A stretch of 64,000 nucleotides of DNA from Chlamydiota bacterium (lineage in GTDB: Bacteria; Auribacterota; JACPWU01): NCBI GenBank assembly GCA_016178055.1, contig JACOUC010000048.1, positions 425 through 64,424 on the forward strand, in the 5' to 3' direction. Position numbers and translations under genes: made by a program. Below the pieces are notes generated by a model. That model was given only the letters and a program-made list of their open reading frames with translations. It ran no database searches and had not been told where the DNA came from. Position 1 is the stretch's first letter. The number at the start of each line of letters is the position of its first letter. Below, one piece after another: positions 3,721-60,914 of this stretch.

Positions 3721-4849
3721 TTTAGATTTGGATGTAAAAATAAAATTTTCTTGTTCGACGCTTTTTTTTCTATTCGCTTTTCTATATTTTAACTGTTTTG
3801 GGATAGAGGGGAGCCCCTCGCAAAATGATTACAAAATCTATATCGTAAAGAAAGGGGACACCCTTTTTTCCATTAGCCACAGATGGGGTATTCAATTAAC
3901 AAGATTAATGGAAGTGAATCATCTTCAAAATCCTAACAAGATTCATCAGGGTCAGAGTCTTATGATTCCTGTTGTTGTGAAAGAGATGGTAAAACCTCCT
4001 TTAAAAGTCGATTTATCTCCAAAAAAGGTTGTTGCACCTCTCCCCTCTATTGCCCCTCCTCTTTCTAAAGATGAATTGGATTTAGATCCTTCTATTTCTC
4101 CAGAGAAGGACGCCTTGTCTCAAAAAGGAGTACCTGCCTCTCCCAAAATGGATCATTTTGGGGTCGGTTTTGGATGGTGGTTTGGTTTTCTGGATGCGAA
4201 GGCCAAGGTTTCTGTCACAGGACTTGAGGGAACGGAGATTGATTTGGCAGATGATTTAGGTGTCGATGATTCTGTGGGGCTTCCCGTGGTGAATTTCTGG
4301 CTTCAACCTTTGCCGTACTTGCGTTTTTCAGGTGAGTATATGGAGTTAGGAATGGAGGGCGCGGCCACGATTGATGAGAAAATTGTTTTTGATGGAGAAA
4401 CGTATTCTATTTCAGATGAAGTCAGTGGAAAGTTAGACATTCAGAGATTCAGTGGTTGGGTTGAAATCAATCCTTTTCGCGGTTCTTGGGGATATGTAGG
4501 AGGGATGATTGGAGGAGAATATGTTCAGCTTGATGCAGAGCTTTCATCCCAGTTGGTAGGAAGTGCAAGTCACAGTCTTGATGCTGTAACACTCACATTA
4601 GGAGCCCAAATGCGTTTAGATATGACTTCGCATTGGGCTATTGATGGACGGATTCGAGGGATGAGTTTTGAATTTGATAATGCCCAAGTTGATGTTTTTG
4701 ACGGCCAAATGGGTCTTGTGTGGAGTCCGATCGAACCTTTAGAATTTTCACTGGCCTATCGCTTCCTCTTTTTTGATTGGGTTCAAACAGAGGATTCGGG
4801 GGATTTAACCTTACAGGGGCCGGTCATCAGTGGTTTAGTAAAGTTTTAA
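3707..4849 (+). CDS. LysM domain protein with C-terminal outer-membrane beta-barrel
   Basis: LysM motif YIVKKGDTLFSISHRWGIQLTRLMEVNHLQNPNKIHQGQSLMIP. Pro-rich linker. About 230 aa of alternating-hydrophobic strands ending in terminal Phe (LVKF). Confidence 0.65.
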   Translation: MRKGNLDLDVKIKFSCSTLFFLFAFLYFNCFGIEGSPSQNDYKIYIVKKGDTLFSISHRWGIQLTRLMEVNHLQNPNKIHQGQSLMIPVVVKEMVKPPLKVDLSPKKVVAPLPSIAPPLSKDELDLDPSISPEKDALSQKGVPASPKMDHFGVGFGWWFGFLDAKAKVSVTGLEGTEIDLADDLGVDDSVGLPVVNFWLQPLPYLRFSGEYMELGMEGAATIDEKIVFDGETYSISDEVSGKLDIQRFSGWVEINPFRGSWGYVGGMIGGEYVQLDAELSSQLVGSASHSLDAVTLTLGAQMRLDMTSHWAIDGRIRGMSFEFDNAQVDVFDGQMGLVWSPIEPLEFSLAYRFLFFDWVQTEDSGDLTLQGPVISGLVKF

Positions 4850-5907
4850 TTTAGCCTTCCATTTTCTTTCAGTAAAGTAGACATTAATCCTAGGAGCGCA
4901 GAAAAGATTTTGATCATTTTCTTTGTATTTTGGGTTGGAAGTGTTAAATGGAGAATTTGAGAACGTTCAATGGATTTTTCAATAATATCGTTGATCCCTG
5001 TAAGATGTTTAGAAGAACGTTTGGAGGGATGAAGGGTTTGGCGAATAAGACGAGCTTTATTTTTTTCTAAGAATTCGGCCGCAGTCCTTTTCCCACGCGA
5101 AATTGAAGAGGGCATTGAAAAAACTTCTTTGAGATGATGATCCAGAAAACCAGTTGCTTTTTGGCGGAAGGACTCAAGATCAAAGGCTCCAAAATATTTT
5201 CTAAAAAAAAATTCTAAGGTCTCTTTCATTTCACTTTGAGGTTTGTGAAGATCTTGAGAGGAGGGATGCGGCTTTTTTCGGGCATAGCGATGAGCTATTT
5301 TCTCGATGAACTTCAATTTTTTTAGGGCATTTCCTTGGTAGGAAGAGTGATCTTCATGAGGGTCTAACCAGGCTGCAAAGGTATCAGAAAAATCCTCTTC
5401 AGGGTGCGTTCTTGAATAGCCCATGGATGCGGCTCCCCAGCGCTCAAGATAATTCACGTAATTTGTAGTCAGGGGGTCAACTTCGCTCAAAGGAATGCGT
5501 TTAGAATTGAAACGTCCAAATAGTTTCCGAGCAGTTTTATTTTTCCCAAGGTTATAAGCGTAGAAAAGGGCATGGCCGCATTCATGCCGTAAAAGGGCTT
5601 TGATTTGGTGATCTTCTAAAGTCTCCCGCCGCTCACTTCCAACCCATCGATTTAATTCTACCAGTTCGGGACGAGCGAGATAAAAAGGGATTCCAATATT
5701 AACGGTATCTTGGACGCATCCAAATTCATCTGAAAGATAGAAAAAAGGTTTATAGATTAAATCATGTTTTTTGAGTTCTTGGCGAATATTTTTAATGAGG
5801 GGTTCGTATCTTGAGCCGGCAATTTTTAAGGGAAGAAGAAAAAGGGGGGTCATCAGAAACTCATACTGCAACGTTTCTTTGCTGTAGAGGGTCTTTTGTA
5901 TGCTCAC
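4846..5907 (-). CDS. Putative zinc metallopeptidase (HExxH)
   Basis: LRHECGHALFY contains HExxH. The overall family call is recollection only. Confidence 0.5.
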   Translation of the reverse strand: MSIQKTLYSKETLQYEFLMTPLFLLPLKIAGSRYEPLIKNIRQELKKHDLIYKPFFYLSDEFGCVQDTVNIGIPFYLARPELVELNRWVGSERRETLEDHQIKALLRHECGHALFYAYNLGKNKTARKLFGRFNSKRIPLSEVDPLTTNYVNYLERWGAASMGYSRTHPEEDFSDTFAAWLDPHEDHSSYQGNALKKLKFIEKIAHRYARKKPHPSSQDLHKPQSEMKETLEFFFRKYFGAFDLESFRQKATGFLDHHLKEVFSMPSSISRGKRTAAEFLEKNKARLIRQTLHPSKRSSKHLTGINDIIEKSIERSQILHLTLPTQNTKKMIKIFSALLGLMSTLLKENGRLN

Positions 5908-5965
5908 GTCTTCTATTTTGATCTAAGTTGTAGAAATCGGCAATTAAAAAGAGCACCCTTTTTAA

Positions 5966-6092
5966 ATTTAAAATTCAAAAGTCAAAATGCAAAATGACAA
6001 CCTAAAATCCAAAATTTATAATGCTATTGCAGGGGAGACATTTTAAGTTTTACATTGTCCGACAAGATTTTTGATGTTTGATTTTTGGATTA
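5966..6092. repeat. Heptamer-periodic hairpin element, AAAATCA flavour, subfamily 2 (D)
   Basis: Arms aaaattc|aaaagtc|aaaatgc|aaaatga and tttttga|tgtttga|tttttgg. Centre aatgctattgcaggggagacatttt is shared with 60753-60914 and, inverted, with 55315-55435. Confidence 0.8.
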
Positions 6093-6250
6093 GCCCGGAT
6101 TTCTCATCAGATTTCTTGAGCTCGACCGCCCGAGTCCGCTTTGGATGCTAGGAAGACGCTCCGTGCCGTGTGAGGCGTACTTTACAGTACGTTGAGCAAG
6201 GCCGACCTCTCTTGCGAAGCAGACGAGGCGGAATTGGCAAAGAGCAGTAG
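6093..6250. repeat. GC-rich structured island (R1)
   Basis: Abrupt GC-rich stretch in AT-rich spacer. Sub-hairpin ggcgtac-tttaca-gtacg. Shares ttgcgaagca, ggcgg and cagacgag words with 28723-28783. Confidence 0.5.
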
Positions 6251-6398
6251 AAAGGTGACATTTCTAAATTGGCTTTACACAGCCCTATTAGGACTTGAGT
6301 TTTAAAATTCATTTTGCTATATTCTTTCCTGTTATTCTCTTGGGGGGATAACGGAATAATATAAAGTGGTGTACCCTAATCGAGGAGGTATGTTTTAC

Positions 6399-6674
6399 AT
6401 GAAATCTTATCGTAGTTTATTGACAGTGGCCTTGGGGCTTTTATTAGGTTTTTCCGTAATGAGCAGCTATGCGGGTATGACGTGTCCTGCTTGTAAAGCT
6501 TCCATGCCGGCTTCTAGTAAGCCCGTTTTGGAGATGCTGAAGGAAGATGCGAAATGCTCCATGTGCAGCGCTGAATTAAAGGTAGGGACCGAAGTGAGCA
6601 AGATGACTTGCCCGGCTTGCAAAGCTGAGATGATTGTTTGTTCAACGTGTGCAAAAGCAAACCAAGAGTCCTAA
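6399..6674 (+). CDS. Small secreted protein with four CxxC motifs
   Basis: RBS gaggagg 10 nt upstream of ATG 6399. Signal peptide MKSYRSLLTVALGLLLGFSVMSSYA. Mature ~65 aa carries CPAC, CSMC, CPAC, CSTC. MTCPACKA occurs twice. Confidence 0.6.
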   Translation: MKSYRSLLTVALGLLLGFSVMSSYAGMTCPACKASMPASSKPVLEMLKEDAKCSMCSAELKVGTEVSKMTCPACKAEMIVCSTCAKANQES

Positions 6675-6698
6675 GAATATTTTCTTAGATTCTTCAAG

Positions 6699-6733
6699 AC
6701 ACCCCTGGGATAAAATCCCGGGGGTGTTTTTTT
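6699..6733 (+). terminator. Rho-independent terminator
   Basis: acacccctggga-taaaa-tcccgggggtgt followed by ttttttt. Confidence 0.8.
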
Positions 6734-6765: not shown

Positions 6766-6794
6766 TTGACATTCTTATAATTTTAATTAATACT
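6766..6794 (+). promoter_or_regulatory. Candidate sigma-70 promoter of fur
   Basis: TTGACA (6766-6771), 17-nt spacer, AATACT (6789-6794). The operator palindrome follows immediately. Confidence 0.4.
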
Positions 6795-6809
6795 GAGACT
6801 CAATCTCAA
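6794..6809. promoter_or_regulatory. Fur-family operator candidate (7-1-7 inverted repeat), site 1
   Basis: tgagactcaatctcaa is the exact reverse complement of the 16-mer at 7310-7325. It abuts the fur start codon. Confidence 0.6.
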
Positions 6810-7243
6810 TGGATAACGCGATACTTTCGCAACAGGATTATAGGATTAAGTTAAAAGAAAGCGGTTTAAAGCCGACGCAGGCGAGATTATTGATTTTTAA
6901 AGAGGTTCTTAAAATGCCACATCACTTCAATGCGGATGATTTGGCTTTGCGAGTACGGAGTCAAAACGAAAGGGTTTCTCGGGCAACGGTATATCGGGCG
7001 CTTCCTATTCTGGTTGAATTTGGAATTTTAAGGGAAGTCGTTTTTAGTGAAAAACATCATAATTATGAATGCATGCTGGGAAGGAAACATCACGAGCATT
7101 TGATTTGTCTTAAATGTGGGACGATTATAGAGTTTTCAGATGAGAGAATGGAAATTCCTCTGGATGAAGCTTGTGAGAAGTATCATTTTAAGGCGGTGGC
7201 CCATAAGACGGAAGTGACAGGGTATTGCAGAAAGTGTCAGTGA
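6809..7243 (+). CDS. fur: Fur-family metalloregulator
   Basis: wHTH RVSRATVYRAL, HHEHLICLKCG and C-terminal YCRKCQ (two CxxC pairs), 144 aa. Confidence 0.85.
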   Translation: MDNAILSQQDYRIKLKESGLKPTQARLLIFKEVLKMPHHFNADDLALRVRSQNERVSRATVYRALPILVEFGILREVVFSEKHHNYECMLGRKHHEHLICLKCGTIIEFSDERMEIPLDEACEKYHFKAVAHKTEVTGYCRKCQ

Positions 7244-7309: not shown

Positions 7310-7326
7310 TTGAGATTGAGTCTCAA
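7310..7326. promoter_or_regulatory. Fur-family operator candidate, site 2
   Basis: ttgagattgagtctcaa reads as TGAGATT-g-AGTCTCA. Lies 75 nt upstream of the hemP-like ORF. Confidence 0.6.
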
Positions 7327-7659: not shown

Positions 7660-8436
7660 ATGTTGTGGAAGAAGGGATTTTTAGTCTTTGTTTTTGCCGG
7701 AATTTTGGGCGGGCTTGTGCAAGCTGATGAGCGGCATTTTACCTATAGCTATGAGGCGGATTCGATTTTGCCCAAGGGGCATTGGGAATTGGAGCAGTGG
7801 GTGACGTTGAAAGAGGGAAAAGATGAGGGGAAGTTTCATCGCTGGGATTTCCGTGAAGAGATTGAATATGGTTTGACGGATCGGCTGACAACAGCCTTGT
7901 ATCTCAATTTCAGAGATACGACGGTGGATCTTAAAGAGGATGGGAACGATTCAGAGGCCTTTGAATTTAGGGGCGTTTCTTCAGAATGGAAATATATGTT
8001 GTTCAGTCCGCATCTTTGTCCCATCGGTGTCCTCTTCTATTTTGAGACACGTTATGATGGTGAGGAGTTGGAACTTGAGGAAAAGCTTATTTTAGAGCAT
8101 ATCTTTTTCGAGAAATGGATCGGGGTCGTTAACGTTGTGGGTGAAGAGGAGTGGGAGTTTGAGGAAGAGGAAACCAAGACGGAAGGTGCGTTGGAGTTTG
8201 ATTTAGGACTTTCTTATCTGATCAATGGACATTGGTCTGTCGGGGTGGAGGCGAGAAATCATCGTGAGTATCCCGAGTTTGAGGAAGAAGAACATTCTGC
8301 GTGGTTTGTGGGACCCAATATTCATTATGGGAGCTCAAAATGGTGGGCAACCTTCACGGTGCTCCCTCAGGTGACGGATGTCCTTGATGAGCATGAGGAG
8401 GTTGAAGTGAGGTTTATTGCGGGAGTATTATTTTAA
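7660..8436 (+). CDS. Putative outer-membrane beta-barrel protein, acidic loops
   Basis: RBS aaggagg. Signal peptide ...GGLVQA|DE. Alternating strands. Glu-rich loops (EEEWEFEEEETKTE, EFEEEEH). Terminal Phe (AGVLF). Confidence 0.6.
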   Translation: MLWKKGFLVFVFAGILGGLVQADERHFTYSYEADSILPKGHWELEQWVTLKEGKDEGKFHRWDFREEIEYGLTDRLTTALYLNFRDTTVDLKEDGNDSEAFEFRGVSSEWKYMLFSPHLCPIGVLFYFETRYDGEELELEEKLILEHIFFEKWIGVVNVVGEEEWEFEEEETKTEGALEFDLGLSYLINGHWSVGVEARNHREYPEFEEEEHSAWFVGPNIHYGSSKWWATFTVLPQVTDVLDEHEEVEVRFIAGVLF

Positions 8437-8572: not shown

Positions 8573-9985
8573 ATGTTTGAGTCTTTAATCATTATGTTGC
8601 GAGAGGGGATTGAGGCCTCTCTTGTGATTGGAATTCTTTTGGGGAGTTTAAGAAAAATGGGGCGGATGGACCTTGCCCCTTTTGTTTATTATGGTTTAGG
8701 GTTGGCTCTTTTTGGGAGCATACTGGGTGCCGTGCTTCTTCAATTTTTTGTCGTGAGTGAAGAGATTTATGAAGGTTTTCTTTATCTTGGCGCTGCATTA
8801 TTTGTTTCGACCATGCTTTATTGGATGCTTCAGCATTCAAAGAAATTGAAGGGAGAGATTGAGCAAGCGGTTGAAAGAGCTACACAGGAAAAGGGGGCTC
8901 GATCTCAAAAGTGGGGACTTTTTGCGTTTACTTTTTTTATGGTCTTTAGAGAGGGGATTGAGGCCGTTCTTTTTTTAAGTGCGGTGGGCTTAACGACTGA
9001 AAAACTTTTATCATTGATCGGAGGTCTTTTAGGATTAGCTCTTGCCATTCTTTTTTGCGTCGCATTTGTCAAGGGAACGGTTAAAGTCGATTTAAATCGA
9101 TTTTTCAAGGTTAGCACCGTTGTTTTGGTTATTTTCATTGTTCAGCTTTTAATCAATGGATTTCATGAATTATCGGAAGCTCAGATTTTACCCGCAAGCC
9201 AGTGGGAAATGGCACTGATAGGTCCTGTGGTTAGAAATAATGCCTTGTTTATTTTGGCCATTTTAAGTATTCCAATTCTCATTTTTTTATTTCCCTCGCG
9301 TAAAAAAGAGGAAATTTCTGCTGATTTAGAGGGTCCTCAAAGACGACTTCTTTTAGCCAAATTAAAAGGACAAAAAAAATGGCGTTGGTTTTGGGCTTTT
9401 ACTTCTATCACGATTATGATTCTTTTAGGAACTCATGCGGTCTATTCAGGGCGTGGTCAGACGCTTGATCCACCTCTTTTGGTGAATGCAATGGGGGAAG
9501 AGATTCGCATTCCTTTTGAGGAGGTTTCGGATGAAAAGCTTCATCGATTTGCCTTTAAAGATGGAGAGACTCTGATTCGCTTTCTGGTTATCAAAACCGA
9601 AAAAGATCACTATCGAACGGCTTTTGATCTTTGTGAGATTTGTGGTGATTATGGTTACGTTCAAGAAGGGGAGAACGTGATTTGCCTTAATTGCACAGCA
9701 GCAATCTATCCGCCTACGATTGGGGTTCCCGGAGGCTGCAATCCTATTCCCCTTAAGTCAATTTTAGAGGGAGAGCAAATTGTGATTCGTAAAAGTGATT
9801 TGCGAGAGATGTCGGGTCGTTTTAAACAGAAAATGCTTCCACAAGTCGAATGTGAAATTTGCCGCATGAAACTTCATCTAGAAGAGGCTCATTCAATCGA
9901 AATTCAGGGTCGAACATTTTATTTATGCTCGATGGACTCGTGCAGGAAGGAGTTTGAGCGTCGTGCTTCTCAGAATACTCCGTGA
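8573..9985 (+). CDS. FTR1/EfeU-type iron permease fused to Cys-rich DUF2318-like domain and C-terminal YHS/TRASH-like domain
   Basis: Two REGIE (RExxE) motifs (LREGIEASL, FREGIEAVL) in a polytopic N-half. Then CEICGDYGY...ICLNC...GGCNPIP. Then CEICRMK...YLCSMDSCRKEF. Confidence 0.75.
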   Translation: MFESLIIMLREGIEASLVIGILLGSLRKMGRMDLAPFVYYGLGLALFGSILGAVLLQFFVVSEEIYEGFLYLGAALFVSTMLYWMLQHSKKLKGEIEQAVERATQEKGARSQKWGLFAFTFFMVFREGIEAVLFLSAVGLTTEKLLSLIGGLLGLALAILFCVAFVKGTVKVDLNRFFKVSTVVLVIFIVQLLINGFHELSEAQILPASQWEMALIGPVVRNNALFILAILSIPILIFLFPSRKKEEISADLEGPQRRLLLAKLKGQKKWRWFWAFTSITIMILLGTHAVYSGRGQTLDPPLLVNAMGEEIRIPFEEVSDEKLHRFAFKDGETLIRFLVIKTEKDHYRTAFDLCEICGDYGYVQEGENVICLNCTAAIYPPTIGVPGGCNPIPLKSILEGEQIVIRKSDLREMSGRFKQKMLPQVECEICRMKLHLEEAHSIEIQGRTFYLCSMDSCRKEFERRASQNTP

Positions 9986-11222
9986 GTCTTTTCTTCGGCG
10001 AAAACGTCGTAAGACCATTGGAATTTTAGCGGTTGCCTTGGGATCTAGTCTTGCAACGGCCCTCATCGGTATTTCCATTGAGATGGGGGATAAAATAGAG
10101 CAGCAATTAAAAGTTTATGGGTCCAATATCCGAGTTCATGCCGTCGAGCCCCCTCTAAAAAGGGAGTGGGGTCCTTCCCTGAAGGAAGCTTATCTTTCCC
10201 AGAAGGATCTTCCTAGAATCAAAGAAATTTTTTGGACGAATAATATTATTGATTTTGCACCTTTTTTATCACTTCCTGTGGATTGTCAAGGGAAACGCAT
10301 CTTTTTATATGGAACTTGGTTTTCAAAAGAACTTTCTAATCAGCAAAAAATGAAAACAGGAATTCAATCCCTATTCAAATTTTGGAAGGTTGAAGGAGCG
10401 TGGCCTCAAGATGATCAGGTTTTTCCCCAAGCCCTGATGGGAAAAGATTTGGCACGGGTTTTAAATATTCATGTGGGTGATCCCCTTTCTTTGAAGTATG
10501 AGGGAAAAGAACTGAGCGTTAAAGTGGTAGGCCTTCTGGATTCAGGGGAAGAATTTGATACGGCTATTTTGGTTGATTTGACTCAAGTTCAGGTCTTAAC
10601 AGGTCTTACGAATGCCATCCATGAAATTTTTGTGAGTGCACTGACGATTCCCTCAGATTCTCTTGAAAAGACTTTTCGAAAGAGCCCGACAGCACTTTCT
10701 CCCCAAGAATACGAACGTTGGTCTTGTTCCCCTTATGTTTCAAGTATTGCCCGTCAAATCCAAGAGGTTTTTCCTCATTCTGTGGCAGAGCCCATTTTAA
10801 CAGTGGTTCAAAGGGAGGGGTTGATCTTGAGCAAATTGAAGTTTCTCTTTATTTATATTTGCTTATCGGCTCTTCTAACGGCGGGCATTGGTTTTGCAAG
10901 CACCTTAATGGCCACAGTGGTAGAGAGACGTCAAGAAGTGGGCCTCTTACGTGCATTAGGGGCAAGTGTATGGAGTATTCTCCTCATTTTCCTTTCAGAA
11001 ATGTTGGTGATTGCCATTGTAGGATCCACTTTGGGGGGAATTTTAGGATATCTTTTAGGTCAAATGATTTCTTTTAGAATTTTTGAGACAGGTATTCATC
11101 CAAATCTTATTGTAGTTTTTGTGGTCGGGGGAGTGACTTTATTGATTTCCATTCTAGGAGGACTTTTTCCGTTAAGGACTTCTCTTAAATTAGATCCTGC
11201 GAGAGTGCTTCATGAAAATTAA
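9954..11222 (+). CDS. ABC transporter permease, FtsX/MacB type
   Basis: TM1, a large extracytoplasmic domain, three C-terminal TMs. Ends LKLDPARVLHEN. Start (TTG 9954 or GTG 9963) overlaps the upstream stop. Confidence 0.75.
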   Translation: MSVVLLRILRESFLRRKRRKTIGILAVALGSSLATALIGISIEMGDKIEQQLKVYGSNIRVHAVEPPLKREWGPSLKEAYLSQKDLPRIKEIFWTNNIIDFAPFLSLPVDCQGKRIFLYGTWFSKELSNQQKMKTGIQSLFKFWKVEGAWPQDDQVFPQALMGKDLARVLNIHVGDPLSLKYEGKELSVKVVGLLDSGEEFDTAILVDLTQVQVLTGLTNAIHEIFVSALTIPSDSLEKTFRKSPTALSPQEYERWSCSPYVSSIARQIQEVFPHSVAEPILTVVQREGLILSKLKFLFIYICLSALLTAGIGFASTLMATVVERRQEVGLLRALGASVWSILLIFLSEMLVIAIVGSTLGGILGYLLGQMISFRIFETGIHPNLIVVFVVGGVTLLISILGGLFPLRTSLKLDPARVLHEN

Positions 11223-12327
11223 GATGTTTATGAGGTTATGCTTTAAGGCCATGCTGCGTGGGAGAAACAAAACACTTTTACTCATGGGAGTTTCAATGAT
11301 GGCGGTTGCCGTGAGTACAAGCCTTCTTGGACTTATTGATGATATTCGTCTTCAGATGGAAAATGAATTAAAAGTTTTCGGGCCCAATTTTGTGATTCGT
11401 CCCTCTTTGGGATATGATCAAGAAGGAATTTCTCGAGGATGTTTTCCTTTTTTAAAGCGAAAGTTAAAGGAGGCCGAGGCGATCTATTCTCCTTGTCTTT
11501 TGGGAACGATGCAATTCAAAGGAGAACTTGTGGGGGTCATGGGATTGGAAATTGAATCCTATCAGAAATTTTCCCAAAGTTTTGATCTGGAGGGAAGATG
11601 GATTCTCCAACCTCGGGAAGCAATGATTGGGCAGGGCGTTGCTCAAAAATTCGAATTAAAATTAGGGGAACCATTTCAATGGGATGAATATGCTTCTTCT
11701 TTTCATGTCTGTGGAATTTTTCAATCAGGAGGGAAAGAAGATGAACAGATTATTTTAAGACTTTCAGAGGCTCAAGAGGTGATGGGTCAAAAAAATAAAG
11801 TATCCTCATTCTTAGCTCGGATTCCAGGCTCTTTAAAAGAATTAGAAGAGTTAGCGAGAAAAATTGAAGGGCGTTTTCCTTCTCTTAAGGCAAGTCCTAT
11901 TCGAAAAGTAGCTCTTTCTGAAGGAGAGATTCTAGATCGGATTGAAGGGCTTGTTTGGATGGTGACTTTGCTGATCTTTATCATGACAGGACTCACGCTG
12001 ATGGCAACTTCCAATGCACTGGTTTCAGAGCGCCGTCAAGAATTTGGGTTGTCTCGGGTTTTAGGTGCTTCTGGATTTCATTTGAGCCTTCTTTTTTATG
12101 TGCAAGCTCTTTTATCAAGTTGGACAGCTGCCCTGCCCGGATTTTTTCTTGGATTCTGGAGTTTAGACCAATTAGTTCAGAATCTTTTTTCAGTTCATGC
12201 CTCTTTTCGTTGGGAATTGGTTCCCGTGATTTTAGTGTTTATGCTGGTTGTTGTTCTTTTTGGGGGAAGTGTTGCTGTGAGAAGAATCATTAAGATTGAG
12301 CCTGCTATGGTTTTAAAAGGGGAGTAA
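11212..12327 (+). CDS. ABC transporter permease, FtsX/MacB type (second copy)
   Basis: Same architecture. Ends IKIEPAMVLKGE. Overlaps the upstream gene by 11 nt. Confidence 0.75.
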   Translation: MKIKMFMRLCFKAMLRGRNKTLLLMGVSMMAVAVSTSLLGLIDDIRLQMENELKVFGPNFVIRPSLGYDQEGISRGCFPFLKRKLKEAEAIYSPCLLGTMQFKGELVGVMGLEIESYQKFSQSFDLEGRWILQPREAMIGQGVAQKFELKLGEPFQWDEYASSFHVCGIFQSGGKEDEQIILRLSEAQEVMGQKNKVSSFLARIPGSLKELEELARKIEGRFPSLKASPIRKVALSEGEILDRIEGLVWMVTLLIFIMTGLTLMATSNALVSERRQEFGLSRVLGASGFHLSLLFYVQALLSSWTAALPGFFLGFWSLDQLVQNLFSVHASFRWELVPVILVFMLVVVLFGGSVAVRRIIKIEPAMVLKGE

Positions 12328-12453
12328 AATAAATTAAAAATCAAAACGCAAAAATCAAAATGACAAATTAAAATTCAAAAAAATAAATAGCTTTAAAAGT
12401 TTTTCATAAATCTCTACCATAATTTTGATTTTTGATGTTTGATTTTTGGATTT
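12328..12453. repeat. Heptamer-periodic hairpin element, AAAATCA flavour, subfamily 1 (A)
   Basis: Arms tcaaaac|gcaaaaa|tcaaaat|gacaaat and aattttg|atttttg|atgtttg|atttttg. Core aaaaaaataaatagctttaaaag (12377-12399). Shares gtttttcataaatctctaccataattttgat with 13526-13647 and 49932-50044. Confidence 0.85.
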
Positions 12454-12457
12454 TCTT

Positions 12458-13528
12458 ATGAACACACTTATTCATGCAAGGAAATTGACGCGGCGCTATG
12501 GGGATCAGGTTTTGGCCCTGGATCAAGTGGATCTTACTATTCATCAGGGGGAATGGCTGGCGATGATGGGGCCTTCAGGATCAGGGAAAACGACCTTGCT
12601 TAATTTGCTAGGCTGTTTGGATCAACCTACGGATGGAGAAATCTGGTTTGAGGGTAAGCTTACGACAGCTTTAGATCGAACAGAGCTTACCCGTTTTCGA
12701 AGAGAAAATGTGGGGTTTGTTTTTCAGCAATTTCATCTGGTGGATTATCTAACTGCTTTAGAAAATGTGATGGTGGCCCAGTATTATCACAGCATGGTGG
12801 ATGAAGAAGAAGCAAAAAGGGCCTTAACTGAGGTAGGATTGTCTGAGCGTCTTCATCATTATCCCTGTCAACTTTCTGGAGGAGAACAGCAAAGGGCCTG
12901 TATTGCCAGAGCTTTGATTAATCGTCCCAAACTGATTTTGGCTGATGAGCCTACGGGAAACCTGGATGAGAAGAGTGAAGAGGTGGTGCTGGACCTTTTT
13001 AGAAGTTTGCATAGAGAAGGTCATACCATTTTGATGGTGACCCACGATATCACCGTCGGTAAAATGGCCGATCGCCAAATCCAGCTTGAACATGGTAAAA
13101 TCATTGGTTCTTATCTCACTTCTCTTCAAGCCGAAGAGGATATCGAGAATCTCTTAAAAAAATTATGGGAATTAAAAGAGGAGGGCAAACTCTCTTATCA
13201 ATATTTAGAGAATGCTGATTTTCTGGATCATGCGGGAACATTAAAATATATGGGAATAAAAGGTCTGCTAGAGTTTTCCCCGGGGAAGGTTGCATTGACC
13301 GATGAGGGAGAGCGTCGAATGAAAGATGTGATTCGAAGACATCGACTGGCAGAGATCCTTTTTTCTCAAACCTTGCGGATGGATAAGGATCGCTCGGATA
13401 AGGAGGCGTGTCAATTCGAACATCTTCTTGATCCTGAAATGACGGAGAAGATTTGCTCTTTTCTTGAGCATCCGAAATTCTGTCCCCATGGCCGTTTGAT
13501 TCCACCGGGGGAATGCTGTAAAAAATAA
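12458..13528 (+). CDS. ABC transporter ATPase (MacB/LolD-like) fused to a complete DtxR/MntR-like metal-sensor module
   Basis: Walker A GPSGSGKTT, signature LSGGEQQR, Walker B LILADEPT. C-terminal ~140 aa reads IRRHRLAEILF...DKEACQFEHLLDPEMTEKI...CPHGRLIP and parallels DtxR (RKHRLAERLL...DEACRWEHVMSDEVERRL...PFGNPIP). Confidence 0.8.
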   Translation: MNTLIHARKLTRRYGDQVLALDQVDLTIHQGEWLAMMGPSGSGKTTLLNLLGCLDQPTDGEIWFEGKLTTALDRTELTRFRRENVGFVFQQFHLVDYLTALENVMVAQYYHSMVDEEEAKRALTEVGLSERLHHYPCQLSGGEQQRACIARALINRPKLILADEPTGNLDEKSEEVVLDLFRSLHREGHTILMVTHDITVGKMADRQIQLEHGKIIGSYLTSLQAEEDIENLLKKLWELKEEGKLSYQYLENADFLDHAGTLKYMGIKGLLEFSPGKVALTDEGERRMKDVIRRHRLAEILFSQTLRMDKDRSDKEACQFEHLLDPEMTEKICSFLEHPKFCPHGRLIPPGECCKK

Positions 13529-13647
13529 ATCAAAAATCAAAATGCAAATGTCAAAATGACAAATTAAAGTTCAAAAATCAAATGGTTTCGGAAGTTTTTC
13601 ATAAATCTCTACCATAATTTTGATTTTGATATTTAACTTTTGGATTT
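13526..13647. repeat. Heptamer-periodic hairpin element, AAAATCA flavour, subfamily 1 (B)
   Basis: Same orientation and centre as 12328-12453. Confidence 0.85.
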
Positions 13648-13669
13648 GTTTCTAGATAGAAAGGTCAAT

Positions 13670-14968
13670 ATGAAAAAAATGGAAAACGTCTATCAGAAAT
13701 TATGGACTCAGGCCCAATCGCTTATGCCGGGTGGGGTCAGCAGCCCGGTTCGCGCATTTCGTTCTGTTGGATTGGACCCTTTGATTGTTTCTCATGCAAA
13801 GGGATGTAAAATCTATGATGTAGAAGGGCGATGTTTTATCGATCTTGTGATGTCTTGGGGTCCGTTGATGTTGGGACATGCGGATCCAGAAGTGGTGCGT
13901 GAGGTTCAGAATGCCGTTCGTGAGGGCTCCACTTTTGGAGCTTTGTCAGAGAGAGAAATTAAACTTGCCCAGAAAATAAAAGAGGCGATACCTTCCATTG
14001 AGAAAATCAGGTTTGTTAATTCTGGGACCGAAGCGGCGATGACCGTGATTCGCTTGGCTCGTGCTTTTACGGGGCGATCTAAAATCATTAAGTTTGAAGG
14101 TTGTTATCATGGACACTCTGATTTTCTTTTGGCCAAGGCAGGTTCAGGGCTTGCGACTTACAGCCTGCCGGGAAGTTCAGGGGTTCCTGAAGAGGTTCTA
14201 AAATCGACATTGGTACTTGCTTACAATGATTTAGAAGCCCTCGAACGATCCTTCCATCGATTCCCAAATCAAATTGCAGCTGTTTTAGTCGAACCTATTG
14301 CAGCCAATATGGGGGTTGTTCCTCCTCGAGAGGGTTTTTTACAGGGTCTGCGCAGCTTGTGCAAACGATTTGGATGCCTGCTTATTTTTGACGAAGTGAT
14401 TACAGGATTTCGTGTCAGTTTTGGTGGGGCTCAGGGGCTTTACAAAGTTCAACCCGATTTGACCATTCTCGGTAAAATTATTGGAGGTGGGTTTCCTGTT
14501 GGCGCTGTGGGAGGGCGTGCAAAAATGATGGATCAATTAGCTCCCTCGGGTCCTGTTTATCAGGCAGGAACCCTTTCAGGAAATCCAGTGGCCATGGCAG
14601 CAGGCCTCCAAACACTTGAAATGTTACAGGGACAAAATCCTTACCGGAAGTTGGAGCACTTAGGGAGAGAATTGGAAGATGGGCTTTCTAAAATTCTTCA
14701 AATGAAGAAAATTCCATTCCGTCTCCATCGAATCGGTTCTTTGATGACACTCTTTTTCACAAGTCATGAGATTGAAAATTATGAGGATGTTTTGAAATCC
14801 GATTCTCAAAGGTTCAAACAATTTTTTAAAGAAATGTTCGAACAAGGTGTATTTCTTCCCCCTTCTCCTTTCGAAGCCTGGTTTTTGAGTCTGGCTCATT
14901 CTAAGTCAGATATTCAGAAGATTTTAAAAGCGGCTTCAAAAGCGTTGAATTTTAAGCCAAATTCATAA
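13670..14968 (+). CDS. hemL: Glutamate-1-semialdehyde 2,1-aminomutase
   Basis: MPGGVSSPVRAF N-terminus, class-III aminotransferase body, GKIIGGGFPVGA PLP-Lys region. Start chosen at ATG 13670, downstream of the repeat. Confidence 0.9.
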   Translation: MKKMENVYQKLWTQAQSLMPGGVSSPVRAFRSVGLDPLIVSHAKGCKIYDVEGRCFIDLVMSWGPLMLGHADPEVVREVQNAVREGSTFGALSEREIKLAQKIKEAIPSIEKIRFVNSGTEAAMTVIRLARAFTGRSKIIKFEGCYHGHSDFLLAKAGSGLATYSLPGSSGVPEEVLKSTLVLAYNDLEALERSFHRFPNQIAAVLVEPIAANMGVVPPREGFLQGLRSLCKRFGCLLIFDEVITGFRVSFGGAQGLYKVQPDLTILGKIIGGGFPVGAVGGRAKMMDQLAPSGPVYQAGTLSGNPVAMAAGLQTLEMLQGQNPYRKLEHLGRELEDGLSKILQMKKIPFRLHRIGSLMTLFFTSHEIENYEDVLKSDSQRFKQFFKEMFEQGVFLPPSPFEAWFLSLAHSKSDIQKILKAASKALNFKPNS

Positions 14969-43294: not shown

Positions 43295-43393
43295 ATGAAA
43301 ACGAGCCCATAGTCAACGATCTACAGTCCATAGAAAATAAATGATTCCTTTAAAACTGTCGACCATTGACTGTGGACTGTAGACCATTTTCAT
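43295..43393. repeat. Heptamer-periodic hairpin element, GTCNACN flavour, full-length archetype (G2)
   Basis: atgaaaacgag - catagtc|aacgatc|tacagtc|catag - core aaaataaatgattcctttaaaa (43334-43355) - ctgtcga|ccattga|ctgtgga|ctgtaga - ccattttcat. Confidence 0.85.
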
Positions 43394-49855: not shown

Positions 49856-49931
49856 GTCGATGTTGTCATCACTGAAAAGTAAATTTTGATATAAATTCAA
49901 AGTAAGTGTTCAACGTTTCTTTACTTAAGTC

Positions 49932-50044
49932 GAAAATCAAAAATTAAATATCAAAATGACAAATTAAAAATCAAAAATTAAATTGTTTCAGAAGTTTTTC
50001 ATAAATCTCTACCACAATTTTGATATTTGATGTTTGATTTTTGC
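49932..50044. repeat. Heptamer-periodic hairpin element, AAAATCA flavour, subfamily 1 (C)
   Basis: Shares gaagtttttcataaatctctacca-aattttgat with 12328-12453 and 13526-13647. Confidence 0.85.
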
Positions 50045-50888: not shown

Positions 50889-51002
50889 ATGAAAAACGAG
50901 TCCACGGTCAACGGTCAACAGTCTACAGAAAATAAATAATTCTTTTAAACTGTCGACCATTGACTGTCGACTGTAGACCCATTTTCATCCACTTGGGTGG
51001 AC
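50889..51002. repeat. Heptamer-periodic hairpin element, GTCNACN flavour (G3) plus 22-mer attttcatccacttgggtggac
   Basis: atgaaaaacgag - gtccacg|gtcaacg|gtcaaca|gtctaca - core aaaataaataattcttttaaa (50929-50949) - ctgtcga|ccattga|ctgtcga|ctgtaga - cccattttcat. The 22-mer spans 50981-51002. Confidence 0.85.
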
Positions 51003-55314: not shown

Positions 55315-55435
55315 TTAAAAATCCAAAAATCAAATATCAAAAATCAAAATGACAATCTAAAACTTAAAATGTTTCCCTTGCAATGGCACTGGAGATTTTG
55401 GATTTTGATATGTCATTTTGCATTTTGATTTTTGT
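55315..55435. repeat. Heptamer-periodic hairpin element, AAAATCA flavour, subfamily 2, inverted (F)
   Basis: The centre cttaaaatgtttcccttgcaatggcactggagat is the reverse complement of the centres at 5966-6092 and 60753-60914. Confidence 0.8.
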
Positions 55436-58795: not shown

Positions 58796-58896
58796 TGAAT
58801 AAAAAGAGTCTACGGTCCACTGTCTATAGTCCATAGAAATAAACGATTTCCTTGAAACTGTCGACTGTGGACTGTGGACTGTGGACTCGTTTTCAT
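58796..58896. repeat. Heptamer-periodic hairpin element, GTCNACN flavour (G4)
   Basis: aataaaaagag - tctacgg|tccactg|tctatag|tccatag - core aaataaacgatttccttgaaa (58837-58857) - ctgtcga|ctgtgga|ctgtgga|ctgtgga - ctcgttttcat. Confidence 0.85.
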
Positions 58897-59837: not shown

Positions 59838-60752
59838 ATGAAAACACTTAAAGTTGCTGTAGTAGGGGTGGGCTATTTGGGAAAGGAACATGCTCGAATC
59901 TATAGCCAACTTTCTTCTGTCGAGCTTATAGGCCTTGTTGATATTGATTTTGAAAAGGTCTCTAAAATAGCCCATCGTTATGGGACTCAAGCTTATCCCA
60001 ATTGTGAAGCTTTGCCTCCAGGAATTGATTTAGTCAGTGTGGCTGTTCCAACGGTGGAACATTTTCATGTTGCCGATACCCTTTTGGAAAAAGGGGTTCA
60101 TGTCCTGGTCGAAAAACCGATTGCTCAAACGATTGAGCAGGCTTCTCGCCTTGTTGAAAAGGCAAGAGCGAAAGGTCTTGTTTTTCAAGTGGGACACATC
60201 GAGCGCTATAATCCTGCATTTAAAGCACTCGAAGGAATTTTAGACAAGCCACGTTTCATTGAGTGCCATCGTTTAAGTCCTTTTCCTGAGCGTGGGACAG
60301 ACGTTGGTGTTGTGTTAGATCTCATGATTCATGATATTGAAGCGGTTCTTCATTTGGTTCGTTCTCCTTTGAAAGAAATTCGTGCAGTGGGTGTTCCGGT
60401 TTTAAGCCCCTATGAAGATATTGCGAATGCGAGGCTCGAATTCGAAAATGGATGCATTGCAAATTTAACGACGAGTCGTATTTCAATTGAGAAGATGAGG
60501 AAGATTCGGGTTTTTCAAGCCAATGCCTATATCTCTCTTGATTATTTTAAGCAAGAAGGAAAAATTTATCATAAAGAAGGACAAAAAATTACTTGTCAGC
60601 CTATTCCTTTTGAAAAGGCAGAACCTCTCCAATTGGAAATTGCTTCTTTTGTCGATTGTGTGAAACATCAGAAAAATCCTTTAGTCTCTGGAGAGCATGG
60701 AAAACAGGCTTTGGAAGTTGCCATGGAAGTGTTAAAGATGATTAAATCATGA
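59838..60752 (+). CDS. Gfo/Idh/MocA family NAD(P)-dependent oxidoreductase
   Basis: Rossmann N-terminus MKTLKVAVVGVGYLGKEHA, EKP motif VLVEKPIA. RBS ggaggtgg. Confidence 0.75.
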   Translation: MKTLKVAVVGVGYLGKEHARIYSQLSSVELIGLVDIDFEKVSKIAHRYGTQAYPNCEALPPGIDLVSVAVPTVEHFHVADTLLEKGVHVLVEKPIAQTIEQASRLVEKARAKGLVFQVGHIERYNPAFKALEGILDKPRFIECHRLSPFPERGTDVGVVLDLMIHDIEAVLHLVRSPLKEIRAVGVPVLSPYEDIANARLEFENGCIANLTTSRISIEKMRKIRVFQANAYISLDYFKQEGKIYHKEGQKITCQPIPFEKAEPLQLEIASFVDCVKHQKNPLVSGEHGKQALEVAMEVLKMIKS

Positions 60753-60914
60753 AAATTCAAAATCCAAAAATCAAAATGCAAAATGACATATTAAAATCCA
60801 AAATTTCTAATGCTATTGCATGGGAGACATTTTAAATTTTACATTGTCCGACAAGATTTTTGCCGCCTGTGGCGAGCCACGCCCTTGGGCGGGATGTTTG
60901 ATTTTTGGATTTTT
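60753..60914. repeat. Heptamer-periodic hairpin element, AAAATCA flavour, subfamily 2 (E), carrying a nested 31-nt GC hairpin
   Basis: Collinear with 5966-6092 except for ccgcctgtggcgagccacgcccttgggcggg (60863-60893), inserted between atttttg and atgtttg. Confidence 0.85.

Follow-up and report, generated by a model that had tools for sequence, protein, structure and literature searches.

Control of iron uptake in bacteria is generally ascribed almost wholly to transcription, through Fur and DtxR. In a 2023 review of how transporters are regulated post-translationally, the control of FeoB by FeoC is the only such case given for iron uptake, and MetNI and ModABC are the only ABC transporters given as trans-inhibited; in these two, C-terminal dimerising ligand-binding domains lock the nucleotide-binding domains (NBDs), and ligand at the regulatory-domain dimer freezes the ATPase cycle (PMC10710835). 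In Chlamydia trachomatis, an ABC permease is fused to a DtxR-like repressor that is later cleaved off (YtgC-YtgR, CT069; PMC5599777). In the C. jejuni locus Cj1658-1665, which is preceded by a Fur box, an FTR1/P19 system is coupled to a MacB-like ABC made up of an ATPase and two FtsX-type permeases; what the MacB-like ABC does in FTR1/P19-type systems is expressly called unknown (PMC6083913).

Here, we analysed a 64,000-nt stretch of DNA (the window) that contains, at 12458..13528 on the + strand, a gene for an ABC ATPase carrying a DtxR-like metal-sensor module (356 aa plus stop; PF00005 and PF02742). From its sequence, we give an even chance to the reading that the DtxR-derived module serves as an allosteric brake through which metal acts on the ATPase, and not as a repressor.

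The open reading frame is uninterrupted on the + strand from 12446 (TTG) or 12458 (ATG) to 13528. Translation from the ATG at 12458 gives MNTLIHARKLTRRYG, which agrees with the family consensus MxxIxxxxLTKxYG and bears out the coordinates 12458-13528 given in a preliminary description of this DNA. That description had also allowed for a sequencing frameshift or missed stop joining two separate genes. Such an artefact is excluded by the continuous frame and because the same architecture recurs elsewhere: PF00005 plus PF02742 occurs in each of the 120 best homologues listed (52-74% identity, 320-386 aa), and 50 independent metagenome loci, found with a degenerate DNA pattern written by hand for CPHGxxIPxGxCC, encode the ATPase-module fusion too, with an in-frame stop between both halves in just one of them (L205). 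The gene thus encodes one genuine fusion protein. A further scan of a genome collection with the full-length alignment selected generic NBD peptides and was of little use for taxonomy, true fusions making up 3 of the 80 loci among the matches listed (Terriglobia and Acidoferrum MAGs).

The N-terminal half (12458..13111, + strand; aa 1-218) is an NBD of the MacB/LolD/FtsE (type VII) kind according to NCBIfam, Foldseek and its invariant motifs. ABC_tran (PF00005) matches aa 21-166 with an E-value of 1.7e-35, and the catalytic motifs are all intact in the sequence: Walker A (G38-T46), Q90, the signature LSGGEQQR (L139-R146), the Walker B residues D163-E164 and H196 are invariant in 119 homologues. 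Partial matches to the NCBIfam models of MacB, LolD and FtsE reach 206-213 bits, which is under the equivalog cut-offs, and the protein is therefore an orthologue of none of the three. The best Foldseek matches for the NBD are MacB, MJ0796, LolD, FtsE, HrtA, BceA and YbbA, with an rmsd of 1.5-2.5 Å for the first five. Its motifs, its kinship with MacB/LolD/FtsE and the presence of two partner permeases with MacB_PCD and FtsX domains place the ATPase in this ABC group.

These partners are encoded upstream on the same strand, permease 1 at 9954..11222 and permease 2 at 11212..12327 (Pfam, MacB_PCD plus FtsX for both), preceded by an FTR1-family iron permease with a fused Cys-rich, FtrD-like domain (8573..9985, + strand; PF03239, 2.6e-38; PF10080, 7e-30). 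Wherever the flanking DNA suffices, the order of the cassette is fixed, with FTR1+FtrD-like, the two permeases and, last, the fusion ATPase; it is conserved in two related loci, L082 and L083, and in our metagenome survey, where permease 2 keeps its position in 18/18 loci with enough upstream DNA and FTR1+FtrD-like is present in all 12 fused loci having 4.2 kb or more of upstream DNA. In the window, the transporter unit opens with a gene (7660..8436, + strand) for a DUF6662 protein with an N-terminal signal-like sequence (PF20367, 1.2e-15). It is probably no core part of the cassette, since it was not seen at L082 or L083. As in C. jejuni Cj1658-1665, the genes for two FtsX-type permeases and an ATPase are linked to that of an FTR1-family permease, and as in FtrABCD of Bordetella and Brucella, an FtrD-like domain accompanies FTR1. 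Unlike either system, however, the locus has no P19 or cupredoxin gene and its FtrD-like domain is fused to FTR1; moreover, the ATPase carries the DtxR-like module, of which no mention is made for the C. jejuni ATPase.

The module comprises the C-terminal 138 residues (aa 219-356), after the last NBD strand, and is, judged by profile matches and predicted structure, a DtxR-derived two-domain unit. Fe_dep_repr_C (PF02742) matches aa 281-349 with an E-value of 3.8e-24 and 84.9 bits against a cut-off of 27, and was found in each of 26 family members scanned. The likeness to DtxR asserted in the preliminary description also held up in a PDB profile search, in which a profile of the 138 residues matched residues 7-133 of IdeR/DtxR with E-values of 8e-23 to 1.6e-20. 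Since Foldseek with the full-length AF2 model returned matches to the NBD only, a separate model of the module alone (pLDDT 87.8) was used for the fold search: the top 50 matches listed are all DtxR-family or DtxR-like entries, with TM scores of 0.78-0.81 over ~128 columns against DR2539, IdeR and DtxR. The two-domain Deinococcus protein D. radiodurans DR2539 (8PVT) lies within this DtxR-family range and shares 34% identity. The full-length model has a pTM of 0.64, so its inter-domain arrangement is uncertain.

How much of the metal chemistry of DtxR has been kept? The module begins with a variable linker (aa 219-225) and helix alpha1 (aa 226-241; together 13112..13180, + strand), delimited by AF2, column counts and mapping onto IdeR T7-G22. 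AF2 predicts a helix at 222-241 straight after the last NBD strand, with a short linker of few residues. In alpha1, W237 and E241 are invariant and E226, E227 and E230 are conserved acidic positions; the helix also carries N231, the equivalent of DtxR Met10, and K234, and its ligand positions co-vary as E/E versus N/K. The metal-binding and dimerisation domain (aa 281-356; 13298..13525, + strand), defined by PF02742, invariant columns and the IdeR/DtxR alignment, contains the motifs IRRHRLAEILF (aa 292-302), ACQFEH (aa 317-322) and CPHG (aa 342-345), all quoted previously. H295, E299, D314, C318, E321 and H322 are equivalent to DtxR H79, E83, H98, C102, E105 and H106, respectively; in DtxR, the primary site is made up of M10, C102, E105 and H106, and the ancillary site of H79, E83 and H98. 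The codons of three ligands can be read directly (C318, TGT at 13409-13411; E321, GAA; H322, CAT). The retention of C-x2-E-H and of the H79/E83 positions, proposed earlier, extends across the family at 92-100% conservation in 119 homologues (H295, 109; C318, 116; E299, E321 and H322, all 119). At the H98 position the family has D/E, and at the M10 position E/N/H/D. The ligand chemistry of DtxR thus appears to be kept at the level of sequence though these two identities have changed. Added to it is an invariant Cys4His2 set (C333, H338, C342, H344, C353 and C354) within the tail signature C-x4-HP-x2-CPHG-x2-IP-x-G-x-CC. DtxR, IdeR, MntR and the module have their ligand positions in common, as well as the motifs RRHRLAE and AC-x-FEH, but the module differs from these regulators in not being free-standing, in its shorter and unconserved winged helix, in the exchange of His98 for Asp/Glu and in the extra Cys4His2 tail. 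The DtxR model does not account for this tail, which may point to another cofactor (Zn or Fe-S) and another signal.

What might such a module do on an ATPase? We propose that the ATPase would be the energising subunit of a MacB-type (FtsX-permease) ABC machine working with the FTR1+FtrD-like iron permease, and that its C-terminal 138 residues would have kept the metal-binding and dimerisation core of DtxR while losing DNA reading. Under the NBD pair, the two copies of the module would dimerise. A rise in cytoplasmic Fe2+ (or Mn2+) would let metal bridge alpha1 to the C318/E321/H322 and H295/E299 sites, and with alpha1 joined to the NBD by few residues only, the bridged metal might fix the geometry of the NBD pair and block the ATPase cycle or, less likely, permit it. 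Iron uptake would thereby be throttled within seconds, with the neighbouring Fur providing slower transcriptional control. We infer the dimerisation of the module, its bound metal and its coupling to the ATPase; the identity of the metal and the direction of regulation are suggested by physiology only.

MacB-type ABC proteins perform mechanical work in the periplasm and import no substrate. It follows that the ion sensed would be the product of the partner FTR1 and not of the ABC machine itself, and that trans-inhibition in its classical sense is not strictly applicable. Direct metal control of the pump was one of two functions offered in the preliminary description and fits the data better, with trans-inhibition holding as an analogy only. 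Like the C2 domain of E. coli MetNI and the regulatory domain of M. acetivorans ModABC, the module is an extra domain C-terminal to an NBD. The regulatory folds of those two systems (ACT-like C2; a different one in ModC) are, however, unrelated to the DtxR fold, and in Foldseek MetNI chains match the NBD half. Further, MetNI and ModABC are type I importers that sense their own substrate, while a type VII ABC would here sense the product of a partner permease; and where ligand in their case freezes the ATPase cycle (PMC10710835), ligand binding and inhibition in ours are proposals from sequence.

The same domain could instead be a constitutive dimerisation clamp that holds the NBDs in the manner of the C-terminal domains of MalK and FbpC, with a structural metal (e.g. 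Zn at the Cys/His cluster) and no sensing. In favour of a clamp, dimerisation is a function of the PF02742 domain, the residues C333/H338/C342/H344/C353/C354, all invariant, look like a site for structural Zn, and the C-terminal domain of FbpC entangles the NBDs of an iron ABC importer (PMC2896483). A clamp by itself, however, would need no regulatory-site ligands of DtxR, and yet there is little or no variation at H295, E299, C318, E321, H322 and the acidic positions of alpha1; the co-variation within alpha1, in addition, suggests tuning of a functional site. We therefore regard a purely structural role as unlikely.

The remaining part of the module is the diverged winged helix (alpha2, alpha3 and beta-wing, aa 242-280; 13181..13297, + strand), delimited by DSSP, entropy and a PF01325 scan. 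On the AF2 model, DSSP assigns helices at 247-252 and 255-267 and strands at 271-274 and 277-280, which gives the winged-helix order alpha1-alpha2-alpha3-beta-beta before the dimerisation domain, albeit with five residues fewer than in IdeR. Its sequence is the least conserved part of the protein, with a mean entropy of 2.73 bits, compared with 1.27 in domain 2 and 1.07 in the NBD. A control set of 120 IdeR homologues shows the opposite pattern (winged helix 0.25 bits, domain 2 0.62 bits), and alpha3 alone has 2.61 bits compared with 0.09 for the recognition helix of IdeR orthologues. PF01325 yields no match in the window protein even at E<=1 and is above cut-off in 0/26 members scanned (one at E 0.09); it is listed for none of the 120 best fused homologues listed, as against 120/120 IdeR homologues. 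Established IdeR/DtxR structures define S37, P39, T40, S42, Q43, R47 and R50 as DNA-contact residues, P39 and Q43 being those mutated in PDB entries 7B24 and 7B25. Their equivalents are D254, L256, D257, A259, G260, Y264 and I267; not one contact residue is kept, and there is no family consensus at these positions among 119 homologues. The region is also net acidic (mean net charge -1.6). Sequence and model together make it most likely that the winged helix keeps its predicted fold and has lost DNA reading. Since the fold is still predicted, some macromolecular binding role is possible. Accordingly, the term "complete DtxR/MntR-like module" used at the outset needs qualification: the fusion to an NBD is genuine and the two-domain fold is predicted to be complete, but PF01325 is undetected and the third, SH3/FeoA domain is absent.

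These features bear on a second rival, modelled on YtgC-YtgR, in which the module would be a true iron-dependent repressor of its own cassette, either membrane-tethered or released by proteolysis at the linker. There is precedent for a DtxR-like repressor located C-terminally on an ABC subunit and then cleaved (PMC5599777), the predicted fold still includes the winged helix, and the variable linker at aa 219-225 (2.66 bits) could serve as the cleavage site. Against this stand a recognition helix and wing that are the least conserved elements, contrary to real IdeR, the loss of every residue aligned to a DNA contact, the acidic character of the region and the consistent failure of PF01325 to exceed its cut-off. 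The likeness to YtgC-YtgR itself extends to the C-terminal position of a DtxR-family module on an iron-related ABC subunit and to conserved metal ligands (PMC5599777). The partner, however, is the membrane permease of a TroCD/Mnt-type importer in YtgC and the cytoplasmic ATPase of a MacB/FtsX-type machine here. The HTH of YtgR is recognisable, and YtgR is cleaved off and binds its own promoter in an Fe2+-dependent manner, whereas the present HTH sequence has decayed and a separate Fur is encoded next door.

Regulatory DNA around the cassette points in the same direction. The Fur-family regulator lies immediately upstream (6809..7243, + strand; PF01475, 1.7e-29), and its start codon is abutted by the 15-bp 7-1-7 quasi-palindrome TGAGACTCAATCTCA (6794..6808, exact match), whose exact reverse complement lies between fur and the transporter genes (7311..7325). 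Within the 64 kb the palindrome occurs only at 6794 and 7311. These sites, the second placed at 7310, had been put forward for EMSA with the module, a choice that finds no support: they are exact inverted copies flanking fur, and their 7-1-7 architecture, typical of the Fur family and not of the 19-bp DtxR type, makes Fur the likelier ligand. Operators recognised in the window are thus Fur-type sites around fur only. In L082, too, a Fur gene precedes the cassette, but in L083 none adjoins it, which favours the repressor reading; nevertheless, no palindrome is shared among the upstream regions of the window, L082 and L083. Taken together, we find such a repressor decidedly improbable, and the "dual transporter and repressor" of the preliminary description is disfavoured because its winged helix is unconserved, lacks a PF01325 match (0/26 above cut-off) and retains no DNA-contact residue. 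As for other regulatory elements, Rfam detects one tRNA in the whole window and no riboswitch near the cassette, and a promoter and terminator scan of 12250-13700 gave none above shuffle expectation.

The metal-dependent brake gains support from the closest free-standing relatives of the module, annotated as "DtxR family Mn-dependent transcriptional regulator" and composed of Fe_dep_repr_C plus FeoA (e.g. P0130 and P0378). Over the whole length of the module they share 37-44% identity with it, including EExLExxW, RRHRLAE, ACxFEH and CPHGxPIPxGxCC, and they likewise have no PF01325. In place of an N-terminal NBD, however, they possess a C-terminal FeoA/SH3 domain, and they adjoin feoB and not FTR1/FtsX genes. 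The FeoA-fused form adjoins FeoB in 20/37 loci, and in all 21 FeoB loci of the survey it is the only FeoA domain detected. With its sisters next to FeoB, the module occurs more than once on the part of an Fe2+ uptake machine that engages the NTPase, which suggests that both forms make up a clade of transporter-attached iron sensors. More specifically, proteins with the C-x4-HP-x2-CPHG-x2-IP-x-G-x-CC tail and a decayed winged helix might all be cytoplasmic sensors that exert direct post-translational feedback on their transporter and are not transcription factors, a generalisation we hold tentatively and somewhat below even chances; adjacency to FeoB is equally expected of a local transcription factor. 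A second input, for instance Fe-S or redox status, may come in through the Cys4His2 tail.

We know of no DtxR fold that acts as a metallochaperone, which speaks against a third reading, in which the module would take Fe2+ leaving FTR1 and hand it on as a chaperone or buffer, ATP hydrolysis driving release without being metal-regulated. Its obligatory link to FTR1+FtrD-like, several metal sites per chain, one of them thiolate-rich, and the unknown substrate of the homologous C. jejuni ABC (PMC6083913) would suit such an acceptor, but the same module also sits on FeoA, a regulatory partner of FeoB that forms no transport path (PMC8980893), and we deem the idea highly improbable.

If the allosteric brake is real, an iron sensor inside the ATPase would act quickly and on the protein itself, and evolution would clearly have turned a transcription-factor fold into an allosteric domain; with the FeoA-fused form included, two unrelated Fe2+ uptake systems, the FTR1-associated ABC and FeoB, would be under direct NTPase feedback. 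The sensor also offers an experimental entry to the role of the MacB-like ABC, via the metal dependence of its ATPase activity. The fusion family is widespread, and a literature search found no paper on an NBD plus Fe_dep_repr_C fusion; the earlier statement that no characterised example exists holds to this extent, YtgC-YtgR being a partial precedent (PMC5599777). Annotation pipelines at present name the fusion "ABC ATP-binding protein" and the FeoA-fused form "Mn-dependent transcriptional regulator", the latter probably wrongly. Both forms are abundant in soil and sediment metagenomes, in Acidobacteriota, Latescibacteria, Nitrospirota and others.

What does a DtxR-like module do at the C-terminus of an ABC ATPase? 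The concern that this fusion might be a frameshift or a missed stop has fallen away: the ORF (12458-13528, + strand, 356 aa) is unbroken, Pfam places both ABC_tran (aa 21-166, 1.7e-35) and Fe_dep_repr_C (PF02742; aa 281-349, 3.8e-24) in the one protein, and the same PF00005+PF02742 architecture is present in all of the best 120 listed database matches (52-74% identity, 320-386 aa). A degenerate DNA pattern for the C-terminal CPHGxxIPxGxCC, run against metagenome contigs, yielded 120 loci, among which an ORF/phmmer survey found 50 further fusions. The architecture is thus no artefact and not rare. We took ATG 12458 as the start because the family N-terminus MxxIxxxxLTKxYG is reproduced there; an alternative in-frame TTG lies at 12446. 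Where the best 120 homologues are named, it is solely as 'putative ABC transport system ATP-binding protein'. The domain combination is already visible in precomputed Pfam annotations, our literature search found no study of it, and a 2023 review of post-translational transporter control nowhere mentions DtxR (PMC10710835). Two related arrangements are known: ABC ATPases that bear a regulatory domain at the C-terminus, and the fusion of an ABC subunit to a DtxR module. As a side observation, one metagenome locus, L205, carries the ATPase half (2-541) and the module (545-1105) in one frame with a single in-frame stop between them, and a His-rich insertion of ~40 residues in the wing region; the stop may reflect a pseudogene, an error in sequencing or a natural split.

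The ATPase half (NBD, residues 1-218) lies nearest to MacB, LolD and FtsE in NCBIfam, at 206-213 bits, under every equivalog cut-off, and the fusion protein is therefore orthologous to none of them. In an AlphaFold2 model of the full-length chain (mean pLDDT 87.9), the N-terminal half fits MacB, MJ0796, LolD, FtsE, HrtA, BceA and YbbA at 1.5-2.5 A (Foldseek). The 119 fused homologues show no variation at Walker A, the Q-loop, LSGGEQQR, Walker B (including Glu164) or His196, and the ATPase therefore appears functional.

That the C-terminal region is DtxR-like was borne out by profile and model alike. A single-sequence search with the last 142 aa matched D. radiodurans DR2539 (8PVT, E 1.6e-12), IdeR and DtxR over their residues ~8-137, and a 26-sequence profile reached E 8e-23 to 1.6e-20 over IdeR/DtxR residues 7-133. 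The module-only AF2 model (aa 219-356; pLDDT 87.8, pTM 0.82) follows the DtxR order, alpha1-alpha2-alpha3-beta-beta-alpha4-alpha5-alpha6, and superposes on DR2539, IdeR and DtxR with TM 0.78-0.81 over ~128 columns. Together, profile matches, helix order and TM scores predict a two-domain DtxR fold; a third SH3/FeoA domain is lacking in the module. In the full-length model, alpha1 (aa 226-241) begins only a few residues past the last NBD strand.

Retention of the metal ligands, proposed from the sequence alone, also holds in a profile alignment to IdeR/DtxR with column counts in the 119 fused sequences: DtxR H79, E83, C102, E105 and H106 correspond to H295 (109/119), E299 (119/119), C318 (116/119), E321 (119/119) and H322 (119/119). 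H98 is replaced by D314 (53 E and 44 D in the family) and M10 by N231 (44 E, 37 N, 21 H, 13 D). Position 231 (window 13148-13150), which aligns to DtxR M10/MntR D8, co-varies with 234 (13157-13159), which aligns to DtxR R13/MntR E11, as E/E in 43 sequences, N/K in 36 including ours, and H/E in 13; this may mark subfamilies of differing metal-site nuclearity or selectivity, or simply phylogeny. Other conserved alpha1 positions are E227 (107/119), D/E230 (118/119), W237 and E241. C333, H338, C342, H344, C353 and C354 are invariant (119/119) within a C-x4-HP-x2-CPHG-x2-IP-x-G-x-CC tail that IdeR and DtxR do not have, a wider set than the CPHG Cys and His quoted in the preliminary description, and may make up a structural Zn site or serve as an additional sensory one. 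It is unlikely that the module serves purely as a structural dimerisation clamp, as this would leave the invariance of the regulatory-site ligands unexplained.

The winged helix (aa 242-280), in turn, probably no longer reads DNA, as four independent lines indicate. PF01325 is absent from the fusion protein even at E<=1, stays under the cut-off in each of the 26 family members scanned, with E 0.09 for one of them, and occurs in none of the best 120 listed fused homologues, versus 120/120 homologues of M. tuberculosis IdeR. Conservation is inverted: mean column entropy in the fused family is 1.07 bits for the NBD, 1.27 for domain 2 (aa 281-356), 1.61 for alpha1, 2.73 for alpha2-alpha3-wing and 2.61 for alpha3, against 0.25 (wHTH), 0.09 (alpha3) and 0.62 (domain 2) among IdeR homologues, giving wHTH/domain-2 ratios of 2.15 versus 0.41; we compare ratios rather than absolute values because the IdeR control set (79-100% identity) is less diverged. 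S37, P39, T40, S42, Q43, R47 and R50, the DNA contacts in established DtxR/IdeR-DNA structures, align to D254, L256, D257, A259, G260, Y264 and I267, and at these seven columns the 119 fused sequences show no family consensus. PDB 7B24 and 7B25 carry mutations at P39 and Q43. Finally, the family's winged helix is 5 residues shorter than that of IdeR and net acidic (mean charge -1.6), its sole conserved positions being the hydrophobic core L262, M265 and L270, which fits a scaffold that was kept rather than a binding surface.

Could the module nevertheless act as a repressor? The preliminary description was aware of no characterised example of such a fusion, yet Chlamydia YtgC-YtgR, the closest characterised precedent, is a partial one: a DtxR-like repressor on an ABC permease that is cleaved and binds its own promoter with Fe2+ (PMC5599777). 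The decayed HTH speaks against a similar role here, as does an adjacent Fur-family gene (6809-7243) directly upstream of the transporter genes, and we regard this reading as quite improbable. The two 7-1-7 palindromes noted earlier are indeed present, as inverted copies of one 15-mer, TGAGACTCAATCTCA, at 6794-6808, abutting the fur ATG, and at 7311-7325, between fur and the transporter genes; the 64 kb hold no other exact copy. Their layout, however, is of the Fur-family type, DtxR/IdeR boxes being 19-bp 9-1-9 sites. At locus L082 a different palindrome precedes fur, and at L083 none was found upstream; the high conservation of domain 2 is therefore not matched by a conserved operator. Within 6767-6811 there is a TTGACA hexamer at 6767, and the 15-bp operator runs right up to the fur ATG (6809). 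Transcripts of fur may therefore have no leader or a very short one, and the operator may cover the transcription start.

The fusion gene closes a series of fur, a DUF6662 gene (7660-8436), an FTR1 permease fused to an FtrD-like domain (8573-9985) and two MacB_PCD+FtsX permeases (9954-11222 and 11212-12327), all assigned by Pfam. The core order from FTR1+FtrD-like to the fusion is found again in L083 and in L082, where Fur lies upstream. Linkage to FTR1 and FtsX permeases is obligatory: a permease lies upstream in 18/18 survey loci with at least 1.3 kb of upstream sequence, and an FTR1+FtrD-like gene in 12/12 with at least 4.2 kb. FTR1 permeases are known to pair with MacB-like ABCs in C. jejuni cj1658-1665, where every gene is iron-regulated and the ABC substrate is stated as unknown (PMC6083913). 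A direct repeat inside the FTR1 gene (8583-8623/8931-8971) encodes two REGIEA motifs, LREGIEA and FREGIEA. Such pairs are expected for FTR1-family permeases. Just upstream of fur, a 102-aa protein (6366-6674, +) with a signal-like N-terminus, repeated MTCPACKA/CSxC motifs and weak zinc-ribbon matches could be a periplasmic metal-binding protein; a GC-rich terminator-like hairpin (6696-6730) follows its gene.

Where does the module come from? Searched alone against 1.84 billion cluster representatives, it gave 3094 matches at E<=0.001. The best free-standing ones (37-44% identity over the whole module) take two forms, two-domain proteins of ~135-140 aa and proteins of ~215-225 aa that end in a FeoA domain; like the module, they have EExLExxW, RRHRLAE, ACxFEH and the CPHGxPIPxGxCC tail and lack PF01325. 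For one of the latter, P0130, the best 120 homologues listed all carry PF02742+PF04023 and none PF01325; their pipeline name, 'DtxR family Mn-dependent transcriptional regulator', may be wrong. FeoB is encoded in 20/37 FeoA-type survey loci, mostly directly upstream on the same strand, and the order Fur-FeoB-module is frequent; L088, with Fur, FeoB, then module+FeoA (6001-6648) and no further FeoA gene called, is joined by L117, L126, L184 and 17 others in which the module adjoins feoB. By a family-specific HMM and within short flanks, the FeoA domain on the DtxR-like protein is the only one detected in 21/21 FeoB survey loci. PMC8980893 describes FeoA as an accessory protein that stabilises GTP-bound FeoB; the HTH-decayed module is therefore attached to an ATPase or to a GTPase's partner in two unrelated Fe2+ uptake systems. 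Conceivably, all members of this clade serve as iron sensors attached to transporters. L108 is a counter-example to the decay of the HTH: there, a free-standing DtxR-like protein (4499-4975) beside an FTR1-family gene pairs a canonical-looking HTH, VRQPSVVQMLHKL, with an HPxxCPHGxxIPxGxCC tail, making the tail older than the HTH decay. Separately, NCBI/UniRef gives the name 'dihydrofolate reductase' to P0409, P0422 and P0443, which are clear IdeR homologues (PF01325+PF02742+FeoA) of Mycolicibacterium and Rhodococcus; this is apparently a propagated annotation error.

We place about half of our confidence in a module that lets cytoplasmic metal switch the ATPase allosterically, stopping it when iron is replete. 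Two ATPase subunits would pair via PF02742 beneath the NBDs, and cytoplasmic Fe2+ (or Mn2+) would be held between alpha1 and the alpha4/alpha5 ligands, as in the DtxR primary site. Bound metal would stiffen alpha1 against the dimer core and so fix NBD-NBD geometry; in iron-replete cells, ATP hydrolysis would stop, and the FtsX permeases would no longer do the periplasmic work that supports FTR1-mediated uptake. ABCs of the MacB type act as mechanotransducers, so the ion that the module senses would be its partner permease's product. That control takes the form of inhibition is a physiological guess. The regulatory domains of MetNI (C2) and ModC follow a parallel logic, but their fold is unrelated (PMC10710835). 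Whatever probability remains goes to something else, such as a signal read via the Cys4His2 tail; a cytoplasmic iron acceptor or chaperone is very improbable.

Two repeat families occur in the window (~41% GC). The first is a dispersed AT-rich intergenic element of ~100-110 nt that looks MITE- or REP-like, with terminal inverted repeats AAAATCAAAAATCAAAA ... TTTTGATTTTTGATTTT and copies at 5960-6073, 12326-12432, 13522-13627, 49922-50027, 55315-55371 and 60749-60862. The second and third of these directly flank the fusion gene; in L082 and L083 the genes for ATPase and permease have a 4-nt overlap, so the element seems to have been inserted between the two here. The second family, rich in GTCGAC/GTGGAC-like units (ACTGTCGACCATTGACTGTGGACTGTAGAC), has three copies, 43298-43390, 50893-50984 and 58801-58892, spaced ~7.6 and ~7.9 kb apart.
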